Origin: an uncultured Candidatus Peribacteria bacterium | Lineage (GTDB): Bacteria > Patescibacteriota > Gracilibacteria > Peribacterales > Peribacteraceae | Assembly: GCA_964513925.1 (NCBI GenBank) | Contig: CAZENR010000009.1 | Coordinates: 476-64,475 of the forward strand | Direction: 5' to 3' | Length of the DNA stretch: 64,000 nucleotides | In this document: positions 7,573-48,973 of the stretch, piece by piece | Layout: each line of letters starts with the position of its first letter | Position numbering within the stretch: position 1 is the first letter of the stretch | Program-made: the position numbers and the translations under genes | The notes under the pieces: generated by a model | Seen by the model: the letters and a program-made list of their open reading frames with translations, nothing else | Databases searched by the model: none | What the model was told of the DNA's origin: nothing

Positions 7573-8889
7573 TTATGCAACCCACAGCCAATTGGCGTAG
7601 CGGAAGAGGAGCAGGCCCTGGAGCAAGGCTGCACACACGAACATTGTCGCAAGGGACACTTCTAGCGTGGCACGCAACGCAGGGCTTGGCCGCCAGCGCA
7701 TCAGCAATGGTGCTGCGAGCAGCGTCAGCAGTGCAAAAACCGGGAATGTATGACGCACCATGGACTCCATGCCCATGGGCGCAAAACTGGCGCCCGAAAT
7801 ATACAGAATCCATCCGGCACACCAATACAAGACAATGCGAGGCAACCAGTCGCTGCTACCCGCTTTCCGAGAAAGCGCCCGCACCGCATCGGCTACGACA
7901 ATAGCCAAAAACACCCAACCGATGACAGCGGCGGTAAAACGCCCCAGTTGAGCCGGGTCCAAGAGCGGCCCCTGCACTTCTGGAACCAACAGTCTCGGCG
8001 GCCAACGCAGGGGAAAGAGGTAATCCGGATGAATTCCCCAGCCCAGCCGCTGACGCCAGATGTACAAATCCCAATGCCCGAACTGCAACTGGCAATACAA
8101 CAGGAACCCCAAGCCTCCGCAGGCAGCGAGGACGCTGTCCCACAAGGCAAACGAATACAATCCTTTCTGTGACTGCATACAACGCCTCCACAGCGCAACG
8201 ATCAACGGCAGTGCGGCAAGCGGCAACGCAACAAACTTTGTTGCAGTCATAACGACTCCATGCAGCGTTGCCAATACGCCGGATGCATCTCGGCGATCCA
8301 GCGTCCAGTAGGCAAATCCCAGCAACGATGCCAGAAACAAGGATTCGGAATACGGCATCACCATGAAGAATGCTCCCGGGTGTACTGCAATCGCCAGTAT
8401 GCACAATGCCTGCAGGAGCGCCGGAATACGCAAACGCGCAAGCCAAGCAAGAATGTACGCCCACGCCACCACCGCTGCGCAGCGGCTGACAAGCAGCATT
8501 GCGGTAACCAGCGGTGCAACGCCCAACAATCTCAGCACTCTCACAAACAACGGATACGCCGGGTAGAACGCGATATCGGTTCCGGCTTCTATTTGGCTAC
8601 GGGTTAAAGATGACGGCTCCACTTCATGCGGAATGCTGCTGTTGTATCCGTTCAACACGATGCCGCCGTAGAACTTGGCATCCCACTTCAGCAACATGTG
8701 ATCGGCCTGCCAAAGCGTGGTGCCCAACGCCAGCGGAACACAGAGTGTCTGAACGGTAACGATTACCAATGCCAGCAGCAACCGTTGTGCACAAACCTGC
8801 GCGCGTTCGGGCAGTAGCACCCACGGATACGTCAGGAGAGCCGGAACCGGTGAGCACTGCGCGAAAGGCATCTCCACAGTATACCGCAA
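7573..8889 (-). CDS. polytopic membrane glycosyltransferase-like protein (PIG-V/GT-C-like)
   Basis: 438 aa with more than 8 TM segments. WDAKFYGGIVLNGY...IAFYPAYPLFVR resembles the PIG-V mannosyltransferase signature. Confidence 0.5.
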   Translation of the reverse strand: MRYTVEMPFAQCSPVPALLTYPWVLLPERAQVCAQRLLLALVIVTVQTLCVPLALGTTLWQADHMLLKWDAKFYGGIVLNGYNSSIPHEVEPSSLTRSQIEAGTDIAFYPAYPLFVRVLRLLGVAPLVTAMLLVSRCAAVVAWAYILAWLARLRIPALLQALCILAIAVHPGAFFMVMPYSESLFLASLLGFAYWTLDRRDASGVLATLHGVVMTATKFVALPLAALPLIVALWRRCMQSQKGLYSFALWDSVLAACGGLGFLLYCQLQFGHWDLYIWRQRLGWGIHPDYLFPLRWPPRLLVPEVQGPLLDPAQLGRFTAAVIGWVFLAIVVADAVRALSRKAGSSDWLPRIVLYWCAGWILYISGASFAPMGMESMVRHTFPVFALLTLLAAPLLMRWRPSPALRATLEVSLATMFVCAALLQGLLLFRYANWLWVA

Positions 8890-13285: not shown

Positions 13286-13777
13286 TTACTTCTTGGGACA
13301 GATGCAAGGCCCACCCTTGCTGCAGGTGCAACCAGGTGCGCAACCAGCGGTGCTGCCGCAGCAGAACATTTTCTGAATGACCCAGAACGTGATCAGCATG
13401 ATGCTGGCGTTTTGAATTGCTGCGCCCGCATTGCCCATAACAGATACATCACCAACCATCACCGACAAGCCAGCGTAACCCAAAATGCCTCCGAGCGAAG
13501 CCAGGATACAAATCTTGGCGATGCACTTCAGCTGGCCAATTGCGAACAATAAGCCGCCAGCAATCTGCAGCGCGGGAACAATGTATGCCAATACTCCTGC
13601 AGCCATGGCCAACGCCGGTACTGTGGGGAAAGCGCCCTTGGCCATTTCAACGAATCCTCCAAGGTTGCGGTAATGGTTTACGCCAAATCCGGCCAAAGCA
13701 AGACCGAATCCAATGCGGGGCAACCACTTTGCGTACGTGGACGGACAGGGTTGTACGGGACATTTGCAGCACGACAT
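13286..13777 (-). CDS. DoxX-like membrane protein with Cys-rich N- and C-terminal tails
   Basis: Start at MSCCKCPVQPCP (13777); ATG 13831 is an alternative. C-terminus is CCGSTAGCAPGCTCSKGGPCICPKK. The longer ORF to 14077 would overlap tgt. Confidence 0.5.
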   Translation of the reverse strand: MSCCKCPVQPCPSTYAKWLPRIGFGLALAGFGVNHYRNLGGFVEMAKGAFPTVPALAMAAGVLAYIVPALQIAGGLLFAIGQLKCIAKICILASLGGILGYAGLSVMVGDVSVMGNAGAAIQNASIMLITFWVIQKMFCCGSTAGCAPGCTCSKGGPCICPKK

Positions 13778-13907
13778 GGGAAATGAGAGAAGGAATAAGG
13801 TGTCGCAATTATCGCATTGGGCAGTGCACATTGGACTATCAGTTGGGTGTACTTGCAACGCGAATCGCGCACTGCCATCTCTACCGAAGCACGCTACAAT
13901 CTCCGAG

Positions 13908-15044
13908 ATGTTCACCCTGCACAAGAGCACCGGCCTCGGAAGGCGCGCCACGCTCAGAACCGCGCATGGCGATATAGAGACTCCGTTTTTCATGCCGGTT
14001 GCCACTGCCGGCGCCATGAAAGGCATCACACTGCCGGATCTTGAGGAGCTAGGAGCACAGATTCTGCTCTGCAACACCTACCATCTGCATGTACAGCCCG
14101 GAGAAGCCATTGTCCGCGACGCCGGAGGACTGCACGGATTTCTGCACTGGAACAAGCCGATTCTCACCGACTCCGGGGGGTTTCAAGTGTTTTCGCTCAA
14201 GAGCATTAGAACCATTACCGACGAGGGTGTGCGATTCCAGAACCATCGCAACGGCAGCCCGCTGTTCATCGGGCCTAAGGAATCCATAATCATTCAGCAT
14301 GCATTGGGGGCCGACATCATCATGTGCTTTGACGAATGTCCGCCTTCCACTGCGGCACGCGTTGACCAAATGAAAGCGGTGGATAGGACGCTTCGTTGGG
14401 CCAAGGAATGCAAAAGGGTTCATGAAGAGTTAAAGACCATGAAAGCAGGACTCCAAGACTCCAAGATTCCGGTTGCCAAGGGTAGAAAGGAGGCAAAACA
14501 AACAACTGACTCGCCACTCCTGTTCGGCATCGTCCAAGGCGGCCTGGAGCGAGATTTGCGGGAGAAGTGCGCCAACGAGCTGATTGCCATAGGCTTCGAT
14601 GGGTACGCCGTGGGCGGGCTGGCAGTAGGCGAAACTGAGAGCGAGATGATGGATGTTCTTGATGTGGTGTGCCCGCTGTTACCGGAAAACAAGCCGCGCT
14701 ACCTGATGGGTGTTGGCGAAATACACCAACTGCAGGAAGCCGCCAAACGCGGCATCGATATGGCCGATTGCGTCTCGCCAATGCGCGAAGCTAGGCACGG
14801 CAACGTATGGCTGAGCACGGGCAAAAAGGTGCGCATTCACCGCAGCGAGTACCGCACCGACTATTCTGCCATAGACGAGCATTCCCCCACCCGCTACGGA
14901 CGAGAGCACTCTAAAGCATACGTGCATCATCTCATGCGCTTGGGTGAACGTTACGGTGAAACCATCGCCTGCATGCAAAACATGGCGGTCATGCTGGACG
15001 CCATGAAAAAGCTGCGCGGAAAGATCGACGAATTCACCCACTGA
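13908..15044 (+). CDS. tgt: queuine tRNA-ribosyltransferase
   Basis: Start at MFTLHKSTG. TGT motifs include LTDSGGFQVFS and GYAVGGLAVGE. Confidence 0.92.
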   Translation: MFTLHKSTGLGRRATLRTAHGDIETPFFMPVATAGAMKGITLPDLEELGAQILLCNTYHLHVQPGEAIVRDAGGLHGFLHWNKPILTDSGGFQVFSLKSIRTITDEGVRFQNHRNGSPLFIGPKESIIIQHALGADIIMCFDECPPSTAARVDQMKAVDRTLRWAKECKRVHEELKTMKAGLQDSKIPVAKGRKEAKQTTDSPLLFGIVQGGLERDLREKCANELIAIGFDGYAVGGLAVGETESEMMDVLDVVCPLLPENKPRYLMGVGEIHQLQEAAKRGIDMADCVSPMREARHGNVWLSTGKKVRIHRSEYRTDYSAIDEHSPTRYGREHSKAYVHHLMRLGERYGETIACMQNMAVMLDAMKKLRGKIDEFTH

Positions 15045-25611: not shown

Positions 25612-25701
25612 GCCAGAAGTATACCGTGGCAAGGCTCCCCAACAGTCCGAAAACACGCGAAGCTCTTTCGGATTCCAAGGCCCACAGCAAGATCGAACTT
25701 T

Positions 25702-25735
25702 AGGAATCCTGGAATCCAAGGAGTCTTGGAATCCC
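25702..25735. repeat. GGAWTCC array (4 units, 4 GANTC cores)
   Basis: AGGAATCCTGGAATCCAAGGAGTCTTGGAATCC, starting 3 nt from the lepA stop. Confidence 0.8.
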
Positions 25736-25737
25736 GT

Positions 25738-27579
25738 TTATCTTTTCAGTACCGCCAAAAAAGCTTCCTGCGACAACGACACCTTACCCATTTGCTTCAT
25801 GCGCTTCTTGCCCTTCTTCTGCTTGTCCAAGAGCTTGTTCTTGCGGGTCACGTCACCGCCGTACAGGTAGCCCGTCACGTCCTTGCGCATAGCGGCAATA
25901 TTTTCTCGCGCGACGACCTTGCCTCCAATGGCAGCCTGAATCGGAATTTGGAACTGCGCCTTGGGAATAACCTCCTTTAGCTGCTTGCAAATCTTCATGC
26001 CAACGTCATGCGCTTCGCTGCGGTGAACGATGGTAGAAAGTGCATCAGAAGGCTCTCCAAGCAACAGAATGTCCATTTTTACCAATTCACCGGAACGGTA
26101 GCCAAGGTGTTCGTAGCTCAGCGAAGCGTATCCAGAACTCGCCGACTTCAGCTTGTCGAAAAAGTCCAATACGATGCTCTGCAGCGGCACTTCGAAATGC
26201 ATGATGACGCGCTGGTCTATATGCTCCATGTTCAGGTAGATACCGCGACGATCCTGTACCAGCTGCATGCAAGCGCCGACATCCTGCTCGCGACAAACGA
26301 TTTCCAGCTTTACCCAAGGTTCACGAATGTCCTCGATATAGGTGGGATCCGGAAAATCGGAGGGATTACTGATGAGCGCCACCTTCCTGTCATCTTCTTT
26401 CAGCAGGCTGGCCCGCACGATCTCGGCCGGATTACGGGCGCGCAAATGGACTTCGTACAACACGCTCGGGGCGGTAATGACCAAATCACAGTCATATTCA
26501 CGCTCCAGGCGCTCCTGAATGATGTCCATGTGCAGCAATCCAAGGAAGCCGCAGCGGAAGCCGTTTCCAAGCGCAGTATTGTGCTCGTAGGAAATCTCCA
26601 GCGCAGCATCGTTAAGCGACAGCTTCTCAAGCGATACGCGTAACTTCGGATACTCGTCTGCCTCGCTGGGGTACAAGCCGGCAAAGACCATCGGTTGGAC
26701 TTTTGTGTAGCCGGGCAACGGAGCTTGCTGCGGATCCGAAGCGATGGTGTCACCCACGCGCGCTTCGGCGACATTTTTCAGACCGGTCACGATGTAGCCA
26801 ATCTCGCCTTCGTGCAGCACGTCGGATGAAATGTACTTTGGAGCGAAGAATCCGACATCCTGCACTTCAAAATCCACCTTTGAACCAAGTAAGCGCACTT
26901 TTCTACCCTTGCGGAACTCGCCATCGATCACGCGCGCATAGGCCACCACCCCCCGATATTCATCCATAACCGCATCGAAGATCAGTGCACGGGCGCTGCC
27001 AGGCGCAGACAGCGACTTCTTTGGAGCTGGAATGCGATCAATAACCGCTTGAAGCACCTCCGGAACGCCGGTGCCGTTCTTGGCGGAAATAGAGAGGATC
27101 TCCGACGGGCTGCAGCCCAGCATCTTTACCACCTCGCCAGACACACGCGGCACATCGGCTGCAGGCAGGTCGATTTTGTTGAGCACGGGGATAATTTTCA
27201 AATCGTGCTCCATGGCCATGTACAACACGGCAAGCGTTTGCGCCTGAATGCCCTGGGACGCATCTACAAGCAGAATCGCCCCTTCGCAGGCAGCCAGCGA
27301 CCGACTGACTTCGTAACGGAAGTCGGTATGCCCTGGCGTATCAATAAGATTCAACTGGACGCCGTTGAACTCCATGCGAACAGGCGTGAGCTTAATGGTA
27401 ATGCCGCGCTCGCGTTCCAGCTCCATGGAATCCAGCAATTGCTCCTTCATTTCACGCTTTTGTAGCGTGCCAGTTATTTCGATCATGCGATCGGACAGCG
27501 TGGATTTGCCGTGATCGATATGCGCGATGATGCAGAAATTACGAATATCCATAGCCGAAAGCTCGCCCATGGTACCCAA
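25738..27579 (-). CDS. lepA: elongation factor 4
   Basis: AHIDHGKST and DTPGH motifs plus the LepA C-terminal domain. The start could be a downstream ATG. Confidence 0.95.
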   Translation of the reverse strand: MGTMGELSAMDIRNFCIIAHIDHGKSTLSDRMIEITGTLQKREMKEQLLDSMELERERGITIKLTPVRMEFNGVQLNLIDTPGHTDFRYEVSRSLAACEGAILLVDASQGIQAQTLAVLYMAMEHDLKIIPVLNKIDLPAADVPRVSGEVVKMLGCSPSEILSISAKNGTGVPEVLQAVIDRIPAPKKSLSAPGSARALIFDAVMDEYRGVVAYARVIDGEFRKGRKVRLLGSKVDFEVQDVGFFAPKYISSDVLHEGEIGYIVTGLKNVAEARVGDTIASDPQQAPLPGYTKVQPMVFAGLYPSEADEYPKLRVSLEKLSLNDAALEISYEHNTALGNGFRCGFLGLLHMDIIQERLEREYDCDLVITAPSVLYEVHLRARNPAEIVRASLLKEDDRKVALISNPSDFPDPTYIEDIREPWVKLEIVCREQDVGACMQLVQDRRGIYLNMEHIDQRVIMHFEVPLQSIVLDFFDKLKSASSGYASLSYEHLGYRSGELVKMDILLLGEPSDALSTIVHRSEAHDVGMKICKQLKEVIPKAQFQIPIQAAIGGKVVARENIAAMRKDVTGYLYGGDVTRKNKLLDKQKKGKKRMKQMGKVSLSQEAFLAVLKR

Positions 27580-31821: not shown

Positions 31822-33102
31822 ATGAACCGTCCCCAGCAACGCCAAGAACTGGCAAGTATGACACCCGAACGGCTCGATCAAGAGCGCGACAGGTGGCAGT
31901 TGCTCAAACAATCGGTGGAAGCCTTGCGCAACCACCCACTCATGCCGGAACTGGAACGCATTGGCGCGCAAGCCGGTTCGTTGTGGCAGCGCAACGCCAT
32001 GCTGATCAACATGCCAGAGTCCGGTGAACAGATTGTGGAGAACTGGCGCCGCATGAACGAACTCTACAACAGGGCCAGCGAGCTGAAGGCACGCATGCTC
32101 GGCACGCGTATGGAAGCGGTATTCGGCGCCGATGGCGCGCAGGGCGGCCAGGGCAATGTACGCGACAGCGCCATGGATCGGCTCAACACGCTGTTTTCAG
32201 TCGATGGAGGCACCGCCAACGGCTCTATGAACGCGGTCAACCGTACGCTGTCTACATACCTTCGCGGCCTGACGGCGGACCCGAATGAAGTGCTTGCCGG
32301 CAACAGTCGGGACGGGCATTTCTACGGCCGGCGCCGCGACGGGCAGTTGGGGGTAAACTGGCGCAACGTGGACCTTGCCAGGCAAAACATCGACATGATC
32401 GCAAGAAGTCCCATGGCGCAAATGAACCCCGATCAGCAGCGCCTGCTGCAGCAAATGCGCGATGGCATTCAGCAAGTAGAAAGCATCGATCCCATTGGCG
32501 CAGCCATGGCCAACTGGCGCCGCAGCGTCCCGCGCCGAGAAACGGACTACCGGCCCATCCGGTTCCTTACCGGCATTGGTGCATCGCTCATTACCGGATA
32601 CGGCTTGTACATGGGCAACAAGCACGGTTTTACCTGGCCTACAGCATTGTGGGCAGGCATCGCTGCGATTTCGGTAAATCCCGACTTGCTGCGCAACAGC
32701 ACGTACCATTCGTTGCAGCGCATGTCATATTTGGGCGAACCCTCCACGCTCAACATGTTGCAGCGGGGCGGTGTCTCCGGAGACCGGGGTGCTGCGATCA
32801 TGGAGGAGTTGCAAGAACTGCAGCGCACGAATCCCGCTGGGCTGAATGCACTGATTCGCCGAAACCAACCCGTGACCATGGCGCAGATCGGCGCGCTGAC
32901 CGAAGGCCGCAATACGCCGTTGGTACAAGCGCTTTCGCGCATGGAAAACGACATGCAGCGTAATGCGTTCCTGCACACGTTTGTGCAATCCCGCAGCCGC
33001 GACGACCAGCAAATTCTGCGCGAATTCGTCCGCAGCCGCGACCGCATAGATCCGCGCTTGGACCAGAACCGATTCCTCTTCGGAAACAACGCCAACGCTT
33101 AA
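31822..33102 (+). CDS. hypothetical protein (426 aa), same operon
   Basis: Starts 24 nt after the upstream stop. One internal hydrophobic hairpin. Confidence 0.5.
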   Translation: MNRPQQRQELASMTPERLDQERDRWQLLKQSVEALRNHPLMPELERIGAQAGSLWQRNAMLINMPESGEQIVENWRRMNELYNRASELKARMLGTRMEAVFGADGAQGGQGNVRDSAMDRLNTLFSVDGGTANGSMNAVNRTLSTYLRGLTADPNEVLAGNSRDGHFYGRRRDGQLGVNWRNVDLARQNIDMIARSPMAQMNPDQQRLLQQMRDGIQQVESIDPIGAAMANWRRSVPRRETDYRPIRFLTGIGASLITGYGLYMGNKHGFTWPTALWAGIAAISVNPDLLRNSTYHSLQRMSYLGEPSTLNMLQRGGVSGDRGAAIMEELQELQRTNPAGLNALIRRNQPVTMAQIGALTEGRNTPLVQALSRMENDMQRNAFLHTFVQSRSRDDQQILREFVRSRDRIDPRLDQNRFLFGNNANA

Positions 33103-33127
33103 GGAATCAATTGGAGTCCGGGAATCT
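33101..33127. repeat. GGAWTCC array (3 units)
   Basis: AAGGAATCAATTGGAGTCCGGGAATCT between convergent stops. Confidence 0.7.
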
Positions 33128-33140
33128 GAGATTTACCTCC

Positions 33141-35414
33141 CTACTCGGCTTTCACGAACTCTTTGGTGTACGCCTCCAGCGTGTCACCCATTTCTACGGG
33201 TACGGATGTGGAAACGCGCATACCGCACTCCATACCTTCTTTGGCCTCTTTAATGTCTTTGTCGACGTTCTTCAGCGACGTAATGCGACCGGTGCCAACT
33301 ACCTGGCCCGCTCGCACCAGGCGGAACGGAGTGCGCTTGAGGTAACCGTCGGTCACCTTGCCACCAATAATCTGCTCGCCCTTCTTGCTTAAGAACACGC
33401 CGCGAACTTCCAGGTGTCCGGTTACCTTTTCTTCTTCTACCGGCTGAATAAGACCCTTGAGCAGCAACTCCATTTCCTCAAACAGCTTGTAGATGATGTC
33501 GTAGTTCTGAATCTTGACCCCCTCGCGTTCGGCGGTCTTGGCTACAGACTGCGGCACGTCGACATGGAAGCCAACCACGATACCGTTGCTCGCCGCGGCC
33601 ATCATGACGTCGTTCTCTGTTACAGCGCCAATGGCTCCGTGAATCACCTTGGGCTGCACCTTGTCGGTCACCAGCTTCTTCAAGCTCTCTTGAATGGACT
33701 CGAGCGATCCTTGGGCATCGGCCTTCAGAACGATTTTCAGCTGCTCCAGCTTGCCTTCGGTCAGACGGCTGACCAAGTCGGCAAAGCCGCGCTTCTGCTC
33801 GTTCTGCTTGGATTGCGCGTATGCATCCATGAACGCCTGCAATTCACGATCGGAGGAGAACACCTGCAAAATGTCACCAACGCGCGGCAGAGCGTCCAAG
33901 CCGGACACGACTGCAGGGCCGGATGGCAGCACCAGCTTCATGCGCTTGCCGTCGGGTCCAAGCAGTGCCTTCACCTTTCCAGACGCGGAACCGGAAGCGA
34001 TAAGATCCCCTACCTTCAGGAGGCCTGCATTCACGATGACGGTGGCAAGCGGCCCGTGTGATTTGTCCAAGTGGCTCTCGATGACAGTGGCAATGGCAGG
34101 ACGGTCTGGATCGGCCTTCAGCTCTTCCATTTCGGCAAGCAGCAAGACGCTGTCTAACAGATCGTTGATGCCCTGCTTGGTCACAGCGGAACACGGCACC
34201 ATGGGCACCTTGCCTCCCCATTCTTCAGCCTGCAGGCCATGACCGGCCAACTCCCCTTTCACGCGATCTGGGTCTGCATTGGGCTTATCAATCTTGTTAA
34301 TGGCAACCAGAATCGGCACTTCTGCATCTTTCACGTGGTCGATTGCCTCGATAGTCGTCGGCTTTACTCCTTCCTCTGCAGAAACAACCAGGATCGCAAC
34401 GTCTGTCACCTGTGCGCCACGGGCGCGCATGGCGGTGAACGCCTCGTGACCGGGAGTGTCCAGGAACGTTATAAGTTTGCCGTCGTGCATTACCTGGTAC
34501 GCACCGATGTGTTGGGTAATGCCTCCGGCCTCGCCGGCAACCACGTTCGTAGAGCGAATGGCATCGAGAATAGATGTCTTGCCGTGGTCGACGTGACCCA
34601 TGACGGTGACAATGGGCGCACGCGGCTTGAGCTTGGCAGGGTCTTCGTTCTTCAGAAGCTCGGACAAGTCGTTATGGATAAGCGCCTCCACCGATACGCC
34701 TCCAGCCTCGCGTTGCACCTCCACTCCAAGCTCCAAAGCAACAATGGCAGCCGTGTCGAAGTCGATTTGCTGGTTGATGTTGGCAAGAATGCCGTTCTTC
34801 ATGAGCGCCTGGATGACCTTGGGCACCTGCACGCCGGTCTTCTCGGCGAACTCCTTCACTGAAATTTGCGGCGGAATCAAGACCGGGCCTTCTTTCCTTT
34901 TAATCTGCGTTTGATGCTCGGTACCTATGCGCTTCTTGGGCTGCTGTTGCAGCTTCTGCATCGCCTTAATTTCCGCACGGCGCGCATCGATATCCTTCTT
35001 ACTCATCTGCCGCTGACGGGCAATAACCTGCTGCTGGCGGACAATGGCTTCGCGCGGCACATCGTCGAGTGTCAGCTTGCGCAGCACGTTCAAGTTGGCA
35101 TCGGCGGCTTTCTTGGTTTCGACTTCCGGCGTTGCTGACGCGGGCTTCTCGACAGATTCCTCCTTGGTCTCGGATACCTCATCCTCTTCCTCTCCCCCAC
35201 CCTGCTGTACGGTAGCCCAATCGATGGCGATGCCCTTCTTGTTGGCAATGAAGCGGATGATGCCCATCGCCAAACTCTGCGACACCTCGCGATCGGTAGG
35301 CTTGACTCCGAAATCGACCGTCGTCAATTCCTTGCGAAGTTCCTGACCGGTCATGCCGAGAATTTTTGCAACCTGAATGAGCCGCATGTTCTTGTGCGAG
35401 TCGGATCGTAACAC
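33141..35414 (-). CDS. infB: translation initiation factor IF-2
   Basis: [13 protein letters not shown] and NKID motifs. GTG start at 35414 or ATG nine codons downstream. Confidence 0.95.
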
Positions 35415-36778: not shown

Positions 36779-36983
36779 TTGACTTACGTTTCGTATTATT
36801 ATCTCATAACATTATTAGAAAATCAAGTCTTATTATTGTCAAGAATAGAGCAAAAAGGACGAAGTATAGGCATGGCAGTAGTAAAACGCCAGAGATCTTC
36901 ATTTGGAAAGGGCGGTAACATCCGTTGCGCACTGCACAGCGATCGAGCCGCCAACTCGTACCTCCGGCAGGATGTTGAGAAAA

Positions 36984-37047
36984 GCCGACTGGCGCTTCTT
37001 GTAAGAATCGATCAGAATCCACATCGTCGGGGTGTAGCTTAGTTGGC
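36984..37047 (+). repeat. duplicate of the tRNA-Pro upstream region plus first 20 nt of the tRNA
   Basis: 62 of 64 nt identical to 37083-37146 (offset 99 nt). The tRNA-like part is 37028-37047. Confidence 0.85.
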
Positions 37048-37126
37048 CCAAGTCCTGCCCCAGCGGGACGCTAATAAAAAAGGCCGACTGGCGCTTCTCG
37101 AAAGAATCGATCAGAATCCACATCGT

Positions 37127-37202
37127 CGGGGTGTAGCTTAGTTGGCAAAGCGCCAGGCTGGGGGTCTGGAGACCCAGGGTTCGAGTCCCTGCACCCCGAC
37201 CA
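37127..37202 (+). tRNA. tRNA-Pro (anticodon GGG), CCA encoded
   Basis: CGGGGTG/CACCCCG acceptor, loop CTGGGGG, T-arm CAGGGTTCGAGTCCCTG. Confidence 0.88.
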
Positions 37203-39310: not shown

Positions 39311-40582
39311 TTACTTCTTGAACGGAGACTGGTACTTGGCCTTGGAGCCAAGCTCTTCTTCGATGCGCAGCAACTGGTTGTACTTGGCAACGCGGTCGGT
39401 GCGGGAAAGCGAGCCGGTCTTGATTTGTCCGGTGCGCAGCCCAACTGCCAAGTCGGCGATGAAGGCATCCTCAGTCTCGCCGCTGCGATGACTGGTAACT
39501 GCGGTCCATCCGGCAGCCTGGCACATTTGAATGGTGGCCACGGTCTCGGACACGCTACCGATTTGGTTGAGCTTAATGAGCACGGAGTTGGCGACCTTCT
39601 TCTCAATACCCTGCTTCACGCGCTGGGTGTTGGTGACAAACAGATCATCGCCCACAAGCTGCAGCTTGGAACCGAATTTCTGGTTCATCATGCCGAAGCC
39701 CTCCCAGTCATCCTCTGCAAAACCGTCTTCAATGCTGACAATGGGATACTTGGCGATCAGCTTGCCGTAGAACTCCACCAACTCGGCAGACGTAAACGTC
39801 TTGCCGTCCACGGTGTACTTGCCGTCCTTGTAGTATTCGTTCGCGGCACAGTCGAGAGCCAATTGGATCTTTCCCTCGTATCCTGCCTTCTTGATGGCTT
39901 CCATGAGTACGCCCAATGCCTCGTCGCTGTCTTTGACGTGAGGGGCAAAACCTCCTTCATCGCCGACTGCGGTAACGTGGCCTTTGTCCTTCAGGATCTT
40001 CTTGAGTGCATGGAACGTCTCGGCACCTGCGCGCAGAGCATCGGAGAACGTCTTGAAGCCCGTGGGAATAATCATGCATTCCTGGAAGCTCAAGCCCGAG
40101 TCGGCATGTGCACCACCGTTGATGACGTTCATCATCGGTGTTGGCAGCAAGGTTGCGTCCTTCACGCCGTACTGCTTGGCAAGCGACTGCCACAGCGACT
40201 GCTTCTCGGAGGCGGCGCGGGCCTTTGCCACAGCCATGGAAACACCAAGAATAGCATTGGCGCCAAGCTTGGACTTGTTCGGAGTGCCGTCCAAATCCAA
40301 CATGATTTGATCGACGTCCTTCTGGCTCTCTACAGGCTTGCCTGCAAGCGCCTTGGCAATGGGGCCGTTGACGTTGGCCACGGCCTTCTCGACCGACTTG
40401 CCCAAGTACTTAGCCTTGTCTCCGTCGCGGAGCTCGAGTGCCTCATGCGTACCGGTGGAAGCTCCGGAGGGAACGGCTGCACGACCGAACGAACCATCGG
40501 AGAGCGTGCAATCTGCTTCGAGGGTGGGGTTACCGCGCGAGTCCAGAATTTGGCGCGCGCGAAGAGTGGTGATGGTAGTCAT
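39311..40582 (-). CDS. eno: enolase
   Basis: 423 aa; enolase family throughout. Confidence 0.97.
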
Positions 40583-40634: not shown

Positions 40635-40677
40635 AGGAATCCTGGAGTCCAAGGAGTCCTGGAATCATCGAGATTCC
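40635..40677. repeat. GGAWTCC array (5 GANTC cores)
   Basis: AGGAATCCTGGAGTCCAAGGAGTCCTGGAATCATCGAGATTCC. Overlaps the stop of 40665..41444. Confidence 0.8.
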
Positions 40678-41444
40678 CCCACCACCACAACCACCTTCGC
40701 GCCTCTCTCCACCTCTCCCCCGTTCCAATCGTGAATCGCATGCAGTAGCACATCGAACCGGTAGACAAAGTTTTTGCCGTGCTTTGTGCCGGGGTCGTTA
40801 GTGATGACATAGCCGTCCTTGGTGTATCCGCGCAAAACAAGCATGTGGTACGGAGGGCCCGGGCGACGGAAGTACGGGTTGCCAAGCTGACGACCTGCAG
40901 CCGGAACAATGACAAGCTTTCCTTGGGACAACGCCTTCTTCAGTCCGGCTTCGTCGGGGTTCCATAGCAGCGAAACATCCAGCGTTGGGCGCTGCGCTTT
41001 CAGCGTTGCAGCAACCTCCGCAGCGGTTTCATCTGGTACTGCACCGGTCAAGCCGGATAACCGCATCATTTCGGCATCCGCCTCTTCGGGCGAAGGAATA
41101 CCCTCTCCGGCAAAGTAACGAAGCACCATGAGCATGCTTGCCTCTTCGCAAAATTCCTCATGTGCTTCATCCCAATTCGCAAACGGAGCTTGAACGGTAA
41201 ACGGCACATCCCAGTTGACCTCGGCGGCTACTGCAGGCTGTTTCGACGATGATGCGGACTGCTGCGAGGGCGCCGATGCCGAAGCTGTAACAATGGATGT
41301 GCGAGACGTTGCTGCAGGAACGGAAACGCTCGCTGCCTCGCTCATGCGCGCCTGCCTCTCCAGACGATCTTGCAGCAGACGAATGCCTTGCCAGGACACT
41401 GCAAAAAGCACCACGGCCAGCAACAGCAGCAATATGCGCTTCAT
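40665..41444 (-). CDS. peptidase C39-like domain protein, membrane anchored
   Basis: N-terminal TM segment. VPFTVQAPFANWDEAHEEFCEEASMLMVLRY fits the C39_2-type pattern. Confidence 0.6.
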   Translation of the reverse strand: MKRILLLLLAVVLFAVSWQGIRLLQDRLERQARMSEAASVSVPAATSRTSIVTASASAPSQQSASSSKQPAVAAEVNWDVPFTVQAPFANWDEAHEEFCEEASMLMVLRYFAGEGIPSPEEADAEMMRLSGLTGAVPDETAAEVAATLKAQRPTLDVSLLWNPDEAGLKKALSQGKLVIVPAAGRQLGNPYFRRPGPPYHMLVLRGYTKDGYVITNDPGTKHGKNFVYRFDVLLHAIHDWNGGEVERGAKVVVVVGESR

Positions 41445-43260: not shown

Positions 43261-44184
43261 TTACAGATGCGGATACTTCCGCCGATGGACGACAACGTAT
43301 ACCACCGTCGCCAGCAGTGCAAGAATGGCTAGCACCTGGCTGAAGCGCAGTTGGAATTCGCCAAAGGTAATCCACTGACGCGAAACAACGTAGGCCACTG
43401 TTGCCAATGCAACGCAGCCGCCGTAGATGGCATTTGCCCGCTCGCTTAACTTCAACTCGATTGCGGCAAGTACACCAAGACTGACAAACAAGCAGAACAA
43501 GAATAGGAAATCCGTGAACTTGGCAAACACAGGAATGCCAAAGTCGCCGCGCATGAATTCAAACAAGAACACGGCAACTCCTGCCGCAACGATGCCAAAC
43601 AGCGTTTCGGCACCGGCGCGCTTGGCATTCTTACGAACCACCAGCAAGATGAACGTCAGCGCAAAATAGAAGAGTGCGTAGTACAGCTGCACCGGATGAA
43701 TGGGCACTGCGTAGCGGACGTTGAACGTGTCGATGATCACGCCCCAAGGCATGTTTGTTGGTTTGCCGTACGCCTGCGCGCCGGCGAACATGCCTACCCA
43801 GTCGAAGCCCAGACCCAGTGTCATGGCGGGCAACAGCGCATCCAACCACTGCAAGTACGTGGCACGCTGATTTCGCGTCGTGACGAACAGAACGATGGCA
43901 ATGCCGAGCGCCGCCCCGATGAAGCTGAATTGACCGTCCCAGAAAATAACCATGCGGATAGGCTGCTTGAGGTACGACTGGTAGTTGGCGAGTACGGCAA
44001 TCAACCTTCCACCAGCAAAGAATGCCAATGCAAACCACTTTGCGTTATCGCGGATACCCTGCACGCTTAGGTTTGCAGCTGCCGCAATGCGGAAGAAAAA
44101 CTCGCTACTGACCCACACTCCTATAAGGAGGAAGAGCAAGCGCATCCAAATGACTGCGGGGCCGATTTCGAATGCTTCGAACAT
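43261..44184 (-). CDS. lgt: prolipoprotein diacylglyceryl transferase
   Basis: 307 aa. Lgt-like segments GAQAYGKPTNMPWGV and IHPVQLY. Confidence 0.8.
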   Translation of the reverse strand: MFEAFEIGPAVIWMRLLFLLIGVWVSSEFFFRIAAAANLSVQGIRDNAKWFALAFFAGGRLIAVLANYQSYLKQPIRMVIFWDGQFSFIGAALGIAIVLFVTTRNQRATYLQWLDALLPAMTLGLGFDWVGMFAGAQAYGKPTNMPWGVIIDTFNVRYAVPIHPVQLYYALFYFALTFILLVVRKNAKRAGAETLFGIVAAGVAVFLFEFMRGDFGIPVFAKFTDFLFLFCLFVSLGVLAAIELKLSERANAIYGGCVALATVAYVVSRQWITFGEFQLRFSQVLAILALLATVVYVVVHRRKYPHL

Positions 44185-44235: not shown

Positions 44236-44272
44236 GATTCATACGAAGGATTCCATGACTCCCTGGATTCCG
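44236..44272. repeat. GGAWTCC array, opposite orientation (4 GANTC cores)
   Basis: GATTCATACGAAGGATTCCATGACTCCCTGGATTCC in the lgt / LysE-family divergent spacer. Confidence 0.7.
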
Positions 44273-44364: not shown

Positions 44365-44982
44365 ATGTCCGCATTTCTCACCATTGTTGTCATTCATCTG
44401 CTTGCCGTCATGAGTCCAGGGCCGGATTTCGCACTAGTTACACGAAATAGCCTGTGTCTCTCACGACGTAGTGGAATCTTCACAGCGTTAGGGTTGGGAC
44501 TTGGCATTTTGGTGCATTGCGCCTACTCACTCCTTGGTATTGGCCTCGTTATTTCACAATCAATCCTGCTCTACAACGCCATAAAATGGATTGGCGCACT
44601 GTACCTTATGTACATTGGCTGGAAGGCACTTACACACAAACCCAACAAAGTAACTACTGTGGACTACAAGCATCGCCAAGACATATCGTGCTGGTCAGCA
44701 TTGAGCCAGGGGTTTCTCTGCAATGTGCTCAACCCCAAAGCAACACTGTTCTTCTTGGCACTGTTTACTCAAGTCATTAGCGCAAGCACTCCCCTGCTAG
44801 TACAAGCGGCATATGGACTGTGGATGAGTTTTGCAACGTTCGTGTGGTTTGGACTTGTTTCTTCGGTACTATCACTAGAAGTAATCCGCATTCGCTTCGA
44901 AAGAGTGCAAGGCGCATTTGAGCGCGTCATGGGTGCACTGCTTATTGCACTGGGCCTCAAAATTGCTCTCTCTCATCGCTAG
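44365..44982 (+). CDS. LysE/RhtB-family amino-acid exporter
   Basis: MSPGPDFALV N-terminal motif and six TM segments. Confidence 0.75.
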   Translation: MSAFLTIVVIHLLAVMSPGPDFALVTRNSLCLSRRSGIFTALGLGLGILVHCAYSLLGIGLVISQSILLYNAIKWIGALYLMYIGWKALTHKPNKVTTVDYKHRQDISCWSALSQGFLCNVLNPKATLFFLALFTQVISASTPLLVQAAYGLWMSFATFVWFGLVSSVLSLEVIRIRFERVQGAFERVMGALLIALGLKIALSHR

Positions 44983-47400: not shown

Positions 47401-47460
47401 GACTCCATGATTCCTCAAAGCAAGATCGATGATCCGGAAGCCTTGGAGTCCAAGGAGTCA
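47401..47460. repeat. GGAWTCC-type array (4 GANTC cores)
   Basis: GACTCCATGATTCC...CCGGAAGCCTTGGAGTCCAAGGAGTCA, 30 nt after the dnaA stop. Confidence 0.7.
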
Positions 47461-47489
47461 GAAAGACGCTTTGCGGCTTTTGGGAGTCT

Positions 47490-48926
47490 CTACTTCCCCA
47501 ACCCCACTTCCCTCTCAATAGCGCGCACTTCGCGAAGCAGCTGTGCATCTTCCTGCATGCGCTTCTCTATCTTGTCCACCGCGTGCATGACCGTGGTGTG
47601 ATCGCGGTGACTGAACGATTCGCCTAAGCGCACATAGCTCATACGCAAGTAGCGCTTGGCCAGGAACATGACGATTTGGCGGGGCACCAATACCTCGCGC
47701 ACGCGAGATTGGCCGATCATATCCGGCACCGATACCGAATAGAACTTGCTTACGCCTTCCAGCACATCTTGGAACGACACAGCTTTTACCGCGGCGGGAA
47801 TAAAGCCTACATCGTCCTTCCTTGCCTGCTCTGCAGGATCGGTAATGAGCTTATGCATGATGTCCGAAATGCTGCCCACGGTGGGCATACGGTGCTCCAG
47901 TTCGTACTGCGCTACGGCCTGCATCAGAATGCCCTCCAGTTGGCGAACGTTCTTATCGGCATGCTCGGCAATGTAGCTCAGTACCTTGGCGTCGATGAAC
48001 AGTTCGTACTCCTTTGTTTTTTCGGCAAGGATTGCCAAGCGCGTCTCGTAGTCCGGCGCGCCGACGTCGGCGATCATTCCGCGCTCAAAGCGGGATACCA
48101 GACGATCTTGCAGGATGGACAATTCCTTAGGCGGACGATCGGAACTGATAATCACCTGCTTGCGCTCCTCGATGAGCGTGTTGAAGGTGTGAAACAACTC
48201 TTCCTGCGTGCGCTCCTTGTTGGCCAAAAACTGCACATCGTCGATGATGAATACATCCACCTCGCGGTAACGGCGGCGGAACTGTTCCATCTTCTGGTGC
48301 TGAATAGCCTCGATGACCTGGTTGGTAAAGTCCTCGGTGGTGGTGTAAATGATCGACGCGTTGGCCACCGTCTTTAAGATGGCGTTGCCAACCGCTTGCA
48401 ACAGGTGGGTCTTGCCAAGACCTACACCGCCGTACAGGAACAGGGGGTTGTACTTGCCGCCGGGCTGGTTGGCTACCGCCATGCATGCCGCATGCGCCAA
48501 GCGGTTATTTGGGCCGACTACAAAGTTTTCCAACGTGTATCGCGGGTTTAAGAGCTTGCTGGTCAGACCCTCCGCCAATTTAATTTCGGCGCGGTTGGGC
48601 AGCTTGCGCGGCTTCTTCTTCTCGGGGAAGTGCTCGAGGAGCTTCAGTGTGCGCTGCACGTCATCCTTCAGGCCTACATCCACCTGGTACACGATTTGCT
48701 CAATAGATTCATCGAGCTCCTTGAGCGCATTCAGCGTCATGACGCGGTAGTGCTCCAAGTGCCAGTTCAAGAACATGGGCAGCGGCAAGCCGACCACGAC
48801 GGTGTCCTTCTCCCGACCAAGGATGGTCGTGTCTTTAAACCAGGTGATGAACTGACTGCGTTGCAGCTGCGGCTCAATTTTGCGCAGTACTTCCAGCCAA
48901 AGGACGGTGTCGATAGATGAGGTCAT
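47490..48926 (-). CDS. dnaA: chromosomal replication initiator DnaA
   Basis: 478 aa. AAA+ motif GGVGLGKTHL and DnaA domain IV at the C-terminus. Confidence 0.96.
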   Translation of the reverse strand: MTSSIDTVLWLEVLRKIEPQLQRSQFITWFKDTTILGREKDTVVVGLPLPMFLNWHLEHYRVMTLNALKELDESIEQIVYQVDVGLKDDVQRTLKLLEHFPEKKKPRKLPNRAEIKLAEGLTSKLLNPRYTLENFVVGPNNRLAHAACMAVANQPGGKYNPLFLYGGVGLGKTHLLQAVGNAILKTVANASIIYTTTEDFTNQVIEAIQHQKMEQFRRRYREVDVFIIDDVQFLANKERTQEELFHTFNTLIEERKQVIISSDRPPKELSILQDRLVSRFERGMIADVGAPDYETRLAILAEKTKEYELFIDAKVLSYIAEHADKNVRQLEGILMQAVAQYELEHRMPTVGSISDIMHKLITDPAEQARKDDVGFIPAAVKAVSFQDVLEGVSKFYSVSVPDMIGQSRVREVLVPRQIVMFLAKRYLRMSYVRLGESFSHRDHTTVMHAVDKIEKRMQEDAQLLREVRAIEREVGLGK

Positions 48927-48934
48927 GAGACAGA

Positions 48935-48973
48935 TGAATCCGGAATCCTAGGAATCCTGGAACCTAGGGAATC
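48935..48973. repeat. GGAWTCC array (4 GAATC cores) between rseP stop and dnaA start
   Basis: TGAATCCGGAATCCTAGGAATCCTGGAACCTAGGGAATC. Confidence 0.8.

Follow-up and report, generated by a model that had tools for sequence, protein, structure and literature searches.

What are the short tandem arrays that recur at gene ends in the genome of an uncultured Candidatus Peribacteraceae bacterium, and does the GANTC core carried by each of their units have a meaning of its own? The question is raised by positions 40635-40677 of a 64,000-nucleotide stretch of DNA (hereafter the window), which corresponds to C9:476-64475 of the genome G000, a member of Candidatus Peribacteraceae within the candidate phyla radiation (CPR); the lineage was assigned from lepA neighbourhoods. 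Comparison of G000 with its relatives showed a genus-specific, strand-polar family of gene-end repeats, whose word co-varies with the arms of a cassette carrying a PF05635 gene. We infer that the dispersed arrays derive from this cassette, or are maintained together with it, and that they act on the transcript. The preliminary description of the window had offered three explanations: mRNA-end elements or terminators resembling repetitive extragenic palindromic (REP) sequences, a binding-site array for a dimeric DNA-binding protein, and clustered targets of a GANTC methyltransferase. Its interpretation is partly supported.

The G000 assembly consists of 40 contigs with a total length of 1.44 Mb, a G+C content of 56%, and a completeness of 95%. 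Genes were called with a home-made hexamer caller, which gave 1,231 genes and a coding fraction of 86%. Arrays were called by chaining GANTC sites located 7-10 nt apart into runs of at least three units. All six intergenic arrays listed previously, at 25702-25735, 33101-33127, 40635-40677, 44236-44272, 47401-47460, and 48935-48973, were present, and the 33-mers at 25702 and 40635, described as essentially the same, agreed at 30 of 33 positions. The heptamer GGAWTCC occurred 18 times in the window versus 7.2 ± 2.9 times in dinucleotide shuffles, none of the 100 shuffles reaching 18. GANTC sites, whose count had been proposed as a check, showed no overall excess in the window (218 versus 242 expected). 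Since the GGAWTCC arrays stand out while the GANTC total is not raised, the signal is one of clustering rather than abundance. Genome-wide, the distances between neighbouring GANTC sites peaked sharply at 8 and 9 nt (73 cases for either distance, the background being about 10), and no such peak was found for seven control palindromes. In total, 44 arrays of 3-7 GANTC-core units with 8- or 9-nt spacing were identified in the genome. Forty-two of them were intergenic although 86% of the genome is coding (p = 2e-34), which is the intergenic bias that the shuffled-control count had been proposed to look for. Runs of units in the same orientation most often comprised three or four units, with a maximum of five. 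According to Tandem Repeats Finder, the GANTC-core arrays are practically the sole intergenic family of 7-10-nt arrays in this genome.

The units are asymmetric. Among 158 units oriented by their central base, 146 (92%) had a C at the 3' end, and only 92 (58%) had a G at the 5' end. In any given arm one strand consistently has a pyrimidine at the centre of the unit, giving the core GA(C/T)TCC; TCC is invariant, and the linkers are variable, the commonest being TTG, AA, and AG. The unit had been written as (A/T)GGA(A/G)TCC; its repeated GANTC core stands, whereas the symmetric form with a free central W or N gives way to a strand-specific pyrimidine. The strand that carries this pyrimidine centre is sense to the gene ending beside the array. 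The GAYTCC hexamer peaked 0-50 nt past stop codons, with 81 and 56 occurrences in the two 25-nt bins versus about 12, and the arrays begin about 0-30 nt past the stop codon of the upstream gene. In G000, 26 of the units nearest to a stop were in the sense orientation and 4 were antisense (p = 6e-5); the proximity to stop codons reported for lepA, the C39-like gene, infB, rseP, and dnaA was borne out and acquired a polarity. No orientation bias was found upstream of start codons (5:6). At convergent gene pairs there was one arm per gene, each sense to its own gene (C4 78204/78267 and C35 4830/4880). An array was present in 6.8% of convergent, 2.1% of tandem, and 1.9% of divergent spacers, and in only about 3% of all spacers. 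An inverted partner arm was detectable solely on the downstream side (mean score 16.5 versus 12.0 upstream and 11.6 for random sequence), in about 45% of the arrays.

Four sister genomes of the same genus, G001, G002, G003, and G004, were used for comparison. The sense polarity was replicated in G002 (15:1) and G004 (14:2); in G001 and G003 both strands of the word fit the pattern. The triple pattern GAYTCC-N2-3-GAYTCC-N2-3-GAYTCC had 43 matches in G000 and 9, 1, 10, and 42 matches in the four sisters. In 56 genomes of other genera it was found 0-1 times, except for G028, where it probably represents a coding repeat, and the reversed pattern used as a control had no matches in any of the 61 genomes. 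The arrays of the sister genomes were called de novo in 255-400 kb per genome, and each genome had one dominant word on a common GANNCC-N3 skeleton. The five genomes share synteny from enolase to rseP, and all of them have an array or hairpin in the spacer between the C39-like gene and enolase, built of different words. The word is GAYTCC-N2-3 in a single arm in G000, GAANCCGAR in inverted arms in G002 and G004, GAANCCAAR in inverted arms in G003, and CAGGNGANN in inverted arms in G001. Words differ between species whose enolases are 94% identical. In the rseP-dnaA spacer an array was found in G000 alone. Inspection of the lepA loci of 80 named genomes revealed no GANTC arrays, the relatives carrying other words, and a metagenome scan with the enolase gave a closest match of 72% identity. 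The word is restricted to the genus, and the arrays represent its dialect of a gene-end tandem-repeat family of Candidatus Peribacteraceae.

The word also surrounds a particular gene. Each genome of the genus has one PF05635 gene, except G004, which has two. In G000 an intact open reading frame (ORF) of 118 amino acids (C4:7841-8197, 109.7 bits) is bracketed by arrays at C4:7778-7811 and 8204-8229, the pyrimidine-centre arm being located 30 nt upstream and the purine-centre arm 7 nt downstream. The PF05635 genes of the sisters occupy the same syntenic locus and are enclosed by inverted arrays of their own genome's word, and the second copy in G004 is bracketed by a different word, of the ACGAG type. 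The G000 protein matches the Xanthomonas campestris protein XCC0516 of known structure (PDB 2GSC, E = 1e-24). We know of no role for these "23S rRNA intervening sequence (IVS) proteins" outside diversity-generating retroelements (DGRs). PF05635 genes were found in 36 of 41 Peribacteraceae genomes, with 1-24 copies each, and in 1 of 14 controls. The 24 copies in the 1.1-Mb genome of G013 are an unusual expansion for such reduced genomes. In other genera, inverted tandem arrays of 6-9-nt units, each with its own word, flank PF05635 at about 24 of 26 loci representing 26 genera, and the flanks of these 26 loci had an inverted-repeat score of 35.7, compared with 18.6 when direct repeats were scored as a control. 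In 31 of 32 cassettes the 5' arm was the one rich in G or purines, regardless of the strand of the gene.

Array density was compared in 10 genomes, with only 20-80 kb analyzed per genome. Of the five genomes without PF05635 (23-80 kb sampled from each), four had no genuine arrays, and G020 had one inverted pair. Genomes with 8-10 PF05635 copies mostly contained 12-17 arrays per 100 kb, built of several words; the exceptions were G065, with 7.5, and G008, with 4.9 per 100 kb in the 20 kb sampled. Most of the 24 copies in G013 have their own word, and several of these words recur elsewhere in that genome as gene-less pairs. The second repeat word of G000, and the only other one, is a solo six-copy array of the heptamer GTGAGTA outside the window (C3:99278-99321); in G013 and G018 this heptamer flanks PF05635 genes on both sides, and in G020 it occurs as a pair.

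We consider it moderately probable that the arrays of this dialect derive from the PF05635 hairpin cassette and act at the level of the transcript. The dispersed arrays would be gene-less derivatives, half or whole, of the cassette, and repeated seeding or gene conversion could keep them uniform within a genome. They would be transcribed as the first part of the 3' untranslated region, where paired arms may form double-stranded RNA stems suited to processing by RNase III or to protection of the 3' end, as in 23S rRNA intervening sequences. All five genomes of the genus encode RNase III; the 23S rRNA gene and the rRNA operon are not included in the G000 assembly. The conserved property is a word with a polarity and not the fold, as would be expected of a sequence recognised by a factor. 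The best candidate for such a factor would be a PF05635 pentamer binding one unit per subunit, in line with the homology of this family to Avd, the pentameric nucleic acid-binding protein of DGRs (PMC10053308). The GANTC core would be incidental. An origin of the arrays as a retroelement, either a DGR or of the "copy-and-replace" kind, was rejected because reverse transcriptase is absent in all five genomes.

Several results weigh against a cassette-derived, transcript-level element. Solo arrays fold no better than shuffled sequences, and for 43 arrays the antisense RNA was slightly more stable than the sense RNA. Canonical terminators are distributed independently of the arrays (9 of 31 array spacers versus 112 of 541; odds ratio 1.6, p = 0.26). 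To our knowledge, neither sequence-specific binding nor catalytic activity has been described for PF05635 proteins. The association of the gene with the arrays does not reveal a direction, and the gene could be a passenger landing in pre-existing hairpins. In G013 no correlation was detected between the similarity of PF05635 paralogues and the flank words that they have in common (Mantel p = 0.49); protein similarity exceeded the median in the two most similar flank pairs alone. The density comparison covers small samples, the gene calls come from a crude home-made caller, and the transcription, 3' ends, and processing of the arrays are all steps that we infer.

Could the arrays instead be autonomous structural 3'-end elements, terminating transcription or blocking exonucleases in a REP-like manner, with PF05635 being irrelevant? 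This is unlikely in our judgment, even if it would suit a genome lacking Rho, whose RNA-binding domain was absent from the 95% complete G000. The sense location of the arrays close to stop codons, their enrichment in convergent spacers, the inverted partners downstream of about 45% of them, and the lack of a canonical terminator in 22 of the 31 array-bearing spacers are all consistent with it. Among the three options offered at the outset, a REP-like mRNA-end element or terminator came nearest: the strand-specific, stop-proximal, and convergent-enriched placement agrees with it, while the hairpin, the U-tract, and the terminator role do not. The hairpin of about 10 bp proposed for adjacent units is no more stable than expected, the predicted folding energies of the window arrays being -3 to -23 kcal/mol and their z-scores relative to shuffles -1.3 to +0.6. 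The absence of a U-tract after the arrays, noted earlier, was confirmed. Neighbouring linkers showed no systematic complementarity; conservation concerns the core sequence rather than pairing, and the linkers vary. Canonical terminator-like sites number 917 in G000, 446 of them outside coding sequences, and several array pairs enclose an ordinary terminator composed of an A-tract, hairpin, and T-tract, flanking it rather than replacing it. Moreover, arrays are present in only about 3% of the spacers.

Narrower versions of the structural explanation were also rejected. A role as Rho-independent terminators does not agree with the z-scores and the missing U-tract, Rho utilization (rut) sites find no support, no Rho having been found in the 95% complete G000, and substitution for canonical terminators is contradicted by the lack of mutual exclusion. 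An RNA hairpin is probably not a constrained feature of solo arms, whose sense fold exceeds neither the antisense fold nor the shuffles. Paired arms would still form long stems.

It is likewise improbable that the arrays are neutral or selfish simple-sequence repeats, generated by slippage and gene conversion and tolerated past stop codons, with PF05635 being a mobile ORF that inserts in hairpin loops. Rapid turnover would be expected in this case, and it was observed: the rseP-dnaA array is confined to G000, and words change at 94% enolase identity. The multiple PF05635 copies, up to 24 per 1.1 Mb, the absence of a detected correlation between paralogue similarity and word sharing in G013, and the published view of the Coxiella intervening sequence as selfish point in the same direction. 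Neutral repeats, however, do not account for the same arm polarity in 31 of 32 unrelated words, the post-stop sense polarity replicated in three genomes, or the uniform arm length of 3-5 units, nor for the retention of an array or hairpin in the spacer between the C39-like gene and enolase across five species even though the word has changed.

A sequence-specific protein other than PF05635 is a still poorer candidate, and we consider it very unlikely that the arrays are sites for CsrA on GGA-containing RNA, for a regulator of double-stranded DNA, or for a nucleoid protein. The conserved core with variable linkers does resemble a series of binding sites, and G000 has a strong CsrA match (72 bits). 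CsrA sites have an invariant GGA, usually presented in a hairpin loop, and lie near the ribosome-binding site or in sponge RNAs. In the arrays it is TCC that is invariant, conservation of the initial G of GGA reaching only 58%; they follow stop codons instead of lying at ribosome-binding sites or promoters, with no preferred orientation upstream of starts (5:6), and the array-bearing sisters gave borderline CsrA matches of 26-27 bits. As to the array of sites for a dimeric DNA-binding protein suggested in the preliminary description, the asymmetric unit, its orientation with the upstream gene, the 8.5-nt period, and the avoidance of divergent spacers all argue against a symmetric double-stranded DNA operator.

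The sole N6_N4 methyltransferase (PF01555) of G000 is encoded in an islet of 44% GC about 3 kb past the end of the window (C9:67561-68241, equivalent to L084:3162-3842). It is a circularly permuted protein of 226 amino acids with FxGxG preceding SPPY, its match to CcrM (25 bits) is limited to the S-adenosylmethionine-binding motif, and no restriction enzyme partner was noticed. The genome search proposed earlier found no N6-adenine methyltransferase of the CcrM/HinfI type (beta class, DPPY before FxGxG) in G000. The 226-amino-acid enzyme is absent from G001, G002, and G004, and the fourth sister has a weak partial match of 36% identity, while all four carry GAYTCC arrays. That a GANTC (CcrM/HinfI-type) DNA methyltransferase has its targets clustered in the arrays, as the GANTC in every unit and the nearby enzyme gene might suggest, is therefore highly improbable: the homologous arrays at the same spacers of G001, G002, and G003 are mostly free of GANTC, the motif is neither over-represented nor avoided elsewhere in the window, a palindromic target leaves the strand-specific central base unexplained, and, since the sisters use other words on a shared skeleton, GANTC is an incidental property of a single dialect, and methylation does not explain the arrays.

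The individual arrays of the window illustrate the properties of the family. The five-unit array at 40635-40677 (minus strand) has four units in the sense of the C39-like peptidase gene (40665-41444, minus strand) and one inverted unit at 40672. The stop codon of this gene lies inside the array, and the start of enolase is at 40582, so that the array follows the C39-like gene and precedes enolase. The C-terminus of the C39-like ORF, encoded by 40665-40700, is longer than in four orthologues. The four-unit array at 25702-25735 (minus strand) reads GATTCC-AA-GACTCC-TTG-GATTCC-AG-GATTCC in the sense of lepA (25738-27579, minus strand) and begins 2 nt past its stop codon. A single inverted unit at 25669-25680 (minus strand), reading CGGATTCCAAGG on the plus strand, complements the first unit of the lepA array and forms a weak distal partner arm (score 20 versus a random mean of 11). 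The three-unit array at 33101-33127 (minus strand) occupies the convergent spacer between a 426-amino-acid ORF (31822-33102, plus strand) and infB (33141-35414, minus strand); it is in the sense of infB, 13 nt past its stop. The array of three or four units at 44236-44272 has the pyrimidine centre on the plus strand and is located in the divergent spacer between lgt (43261-44184, minus strand) and lysE (44494-44982, plus strand), one of only four divergent-spacer arrays genome-wide.

The dnaA gene, whose position is corrected here to 47490-48926, has arrays at both ends. Its stop (47490) is followed by a proximal arm at 47444-47459 (minus strand), GACTCC-TTG-GACTCC in dnaA sense, with an extra single unit at 47482-47488. 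A distal inverted arm at 47401-47414, reading GACTCC-AT-GATTCC on the plus strand, pairs with the proximal arm in the predicted fold (-22.7 kcal/mol, z = -1.3). An array of four or five units at 48935-48973 (minus strand) fills the 45-nt spacer from the rseP stop (48972) to the dnaA start (48926); the orthologous spacers of G001 and G003 contain no array. Five tandem 10-mers of the TTTTCCAC type in G003 (L158:13316-13365) resemble a cluster of DnaA boxes and may mark oriC there.

One of the only two arrays found inside a coding sequence, of the 44 in G000, is also in the window: three units at 14446-14471 (plus strand), GACTCC-AA-GACTCC-AA-GATTCC, within the gene for queuine tRNA-ribosyltransferase (13713-15044, plus strand). 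The Pfam match of this enzyme (amino acids 76-440) spans the array, which looks like an in-frame insertion in a housekeeping protein. On the contrary, the GAATCGATCAGAATCC motif upstream of the tRNA gene, previously assigned to the family as lying upstream of both tRNA-Pro leader copies, does not belong to it. Its spacing is 10 nt, and it is part of a direct duplication of about 99 nt at 36980-37140, which includes the 5' part of the tRNA; Rfam gives only one complete tRNA, at 37127-37199. Of the 16S rRNA gene, the G000 assembly contains the 3' end alone, at the end of contig C7 (~85302-85352), with GGAACATCTCCTT in place of the usual GGATCACCTCCTT, a possible sign of a variant anti-Shine-Dalgarno tail.

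Gene-end arrays of 7-9-nt units, such as the short tandemly repeated repetitive (STRR) sequences of cyanobacteria, GGGAATC of Xanthomonas, and TAACTGA of Beggiatoaceae, have been described for decades and have no established function or origin. The genus analyzed here is an unusually clean case, a single PF05635 gene being accompanied by one word and about 44 arrays, and the word shifting between sisters in step with the arms of the gene, which makes a specific hypothesis testable with a 118-amino-acid protein and short oligonucleotides. As a tentative generalization, rather doubtful at present, PF05635 proteins may be the missing partner of bacterial heptamer-to-nonamer arrays: the gene would lie within a hairpin of its own word, the pentamer would bind this word on RNA or single-stranded DNA, and gene-less arms would be deposited at gene ends. 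If so, this would be a protein-plus-repeat system with a logic like that of RAYT/REP or of TRAP and its GAG repeats, spanning CPR bacteria and Xanthomonas, and probably cyanobacteria and Bacteroidota. The analysis also does away with an attractive but mistaken idea, that of CcrM-like GANTC methylation in a CPR bacterium.

Among known systems, REP sequences, including bacterial interspersed mosaic elements (BIMEs) and REPINs, are lineage-specific extragenic words located past stop codons, often as inverted pairs, and the gene of the REP-associated tyrosine transposase (RAYT) is itself flanked by repeats. The arrays share the position after stops, the inverted pairs, and the repeat-flanked gene of an associated protein. 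They differ in having tandem 8/9-mers instead of a single imperfect palindrome of 20-40 nt, and the flanked gene encodes a small four-helix-bundle protein without known catalytic activity. The Y1 transposase of RAYT (PF01797) is absent from G000, G001, G003, and G004, and RAYT-driven REPs were rejected on the grounds of its absence in G000. With cyanobacterial STRR heptamers and the TAACTGA repeats (MacGregor 2015, PMC4679880) the arrays have in common dispersed intergenic tandem units and an orientation bias relative to genes. The Beggiatoaceae TAACTGA arrays, however, are located directly upstream of start codons (PMC4679880), whereas the arrays described here follow stop codons and have no start-upstream orientation bias.

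The cassette itself resembles the 23S rRNA intervening sequences of Coxiella and Leptospira (Warrier et al. 2016, PMC4990558), in which a PF05635 ORF likewise lies within terminal inverted repeats forming a long stem; the RNase III gene is present here as well. The 23S rRNA intervening sequence of Coxiella contains an ORF of the PF05635 family, is cut by RNase III at the stem of its inverted repeats, and is regarded as a selfish element (PMC4990558). Unlike these, the cassette of G000, whose 23S rRNA gene is unassembled, lies between protein-coding genes rather than in helix 25 or 45. A short word repeated in tandem makes up its arms, and this word is dispersed at about 40 other gene ends.

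The closest published analogue is the Xanthomonas GGGAATC repeat. According to Rehm et al. (2015, PMC4692102), 89-93% of these repeats are intergenic, at a mean distance of 28 nt from the upstream ORF and often overlapping its stop; about four units are preferred, 70-75 convergent inverted pairs occur, and the repeats tend to coincide with the beginning or end of transcripts. The arrays of G000 have the character of STRR- and Xanthomonas-type tandem arrays, with 6-9-nt head-to-tail units at dispersed, intergenic, stop-proximal sites. With Xanthomonas GGGAATC and Nostoc GGGGAYT they share head-to-tail units, an intergenic fraction of about 90%, a position 0-50 nt from the upstream stop or overlapping it, about four units per array, a GAATC core, frequent convergent inverted pairs, and restriction to a genus. 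The differences are a period of 8 or 9 nt instead of 7, a CPR host without Rho, and the pyrimidine-centre strand following the stop codon. Since the GGAYTCC unit has no run of at least three G, formation of a G-quadruplex is impossible, unlike in the Xanthomonas and Nostoc repeats. Arrays #15 of the Xanthomonas genome Xcc and #10 of Xac are located 6 nt past bccP and overlap the annotated start of XCC0516/XAC0531 (PMC4692102, supplementary tables). This adjacency, read from the gene tables of that paper, concerns the very PF05635 protein whose structure was solved as 2GSC. The link to PF05635 was not noted by the authors, the PF05635/S23p family being unmentioned in the text and supplements. 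As about 6% of Xcc genes are associated with repeats, the position of XCC0516 provides modest but independent support for a connection between PF05635 and gene-end arrays.

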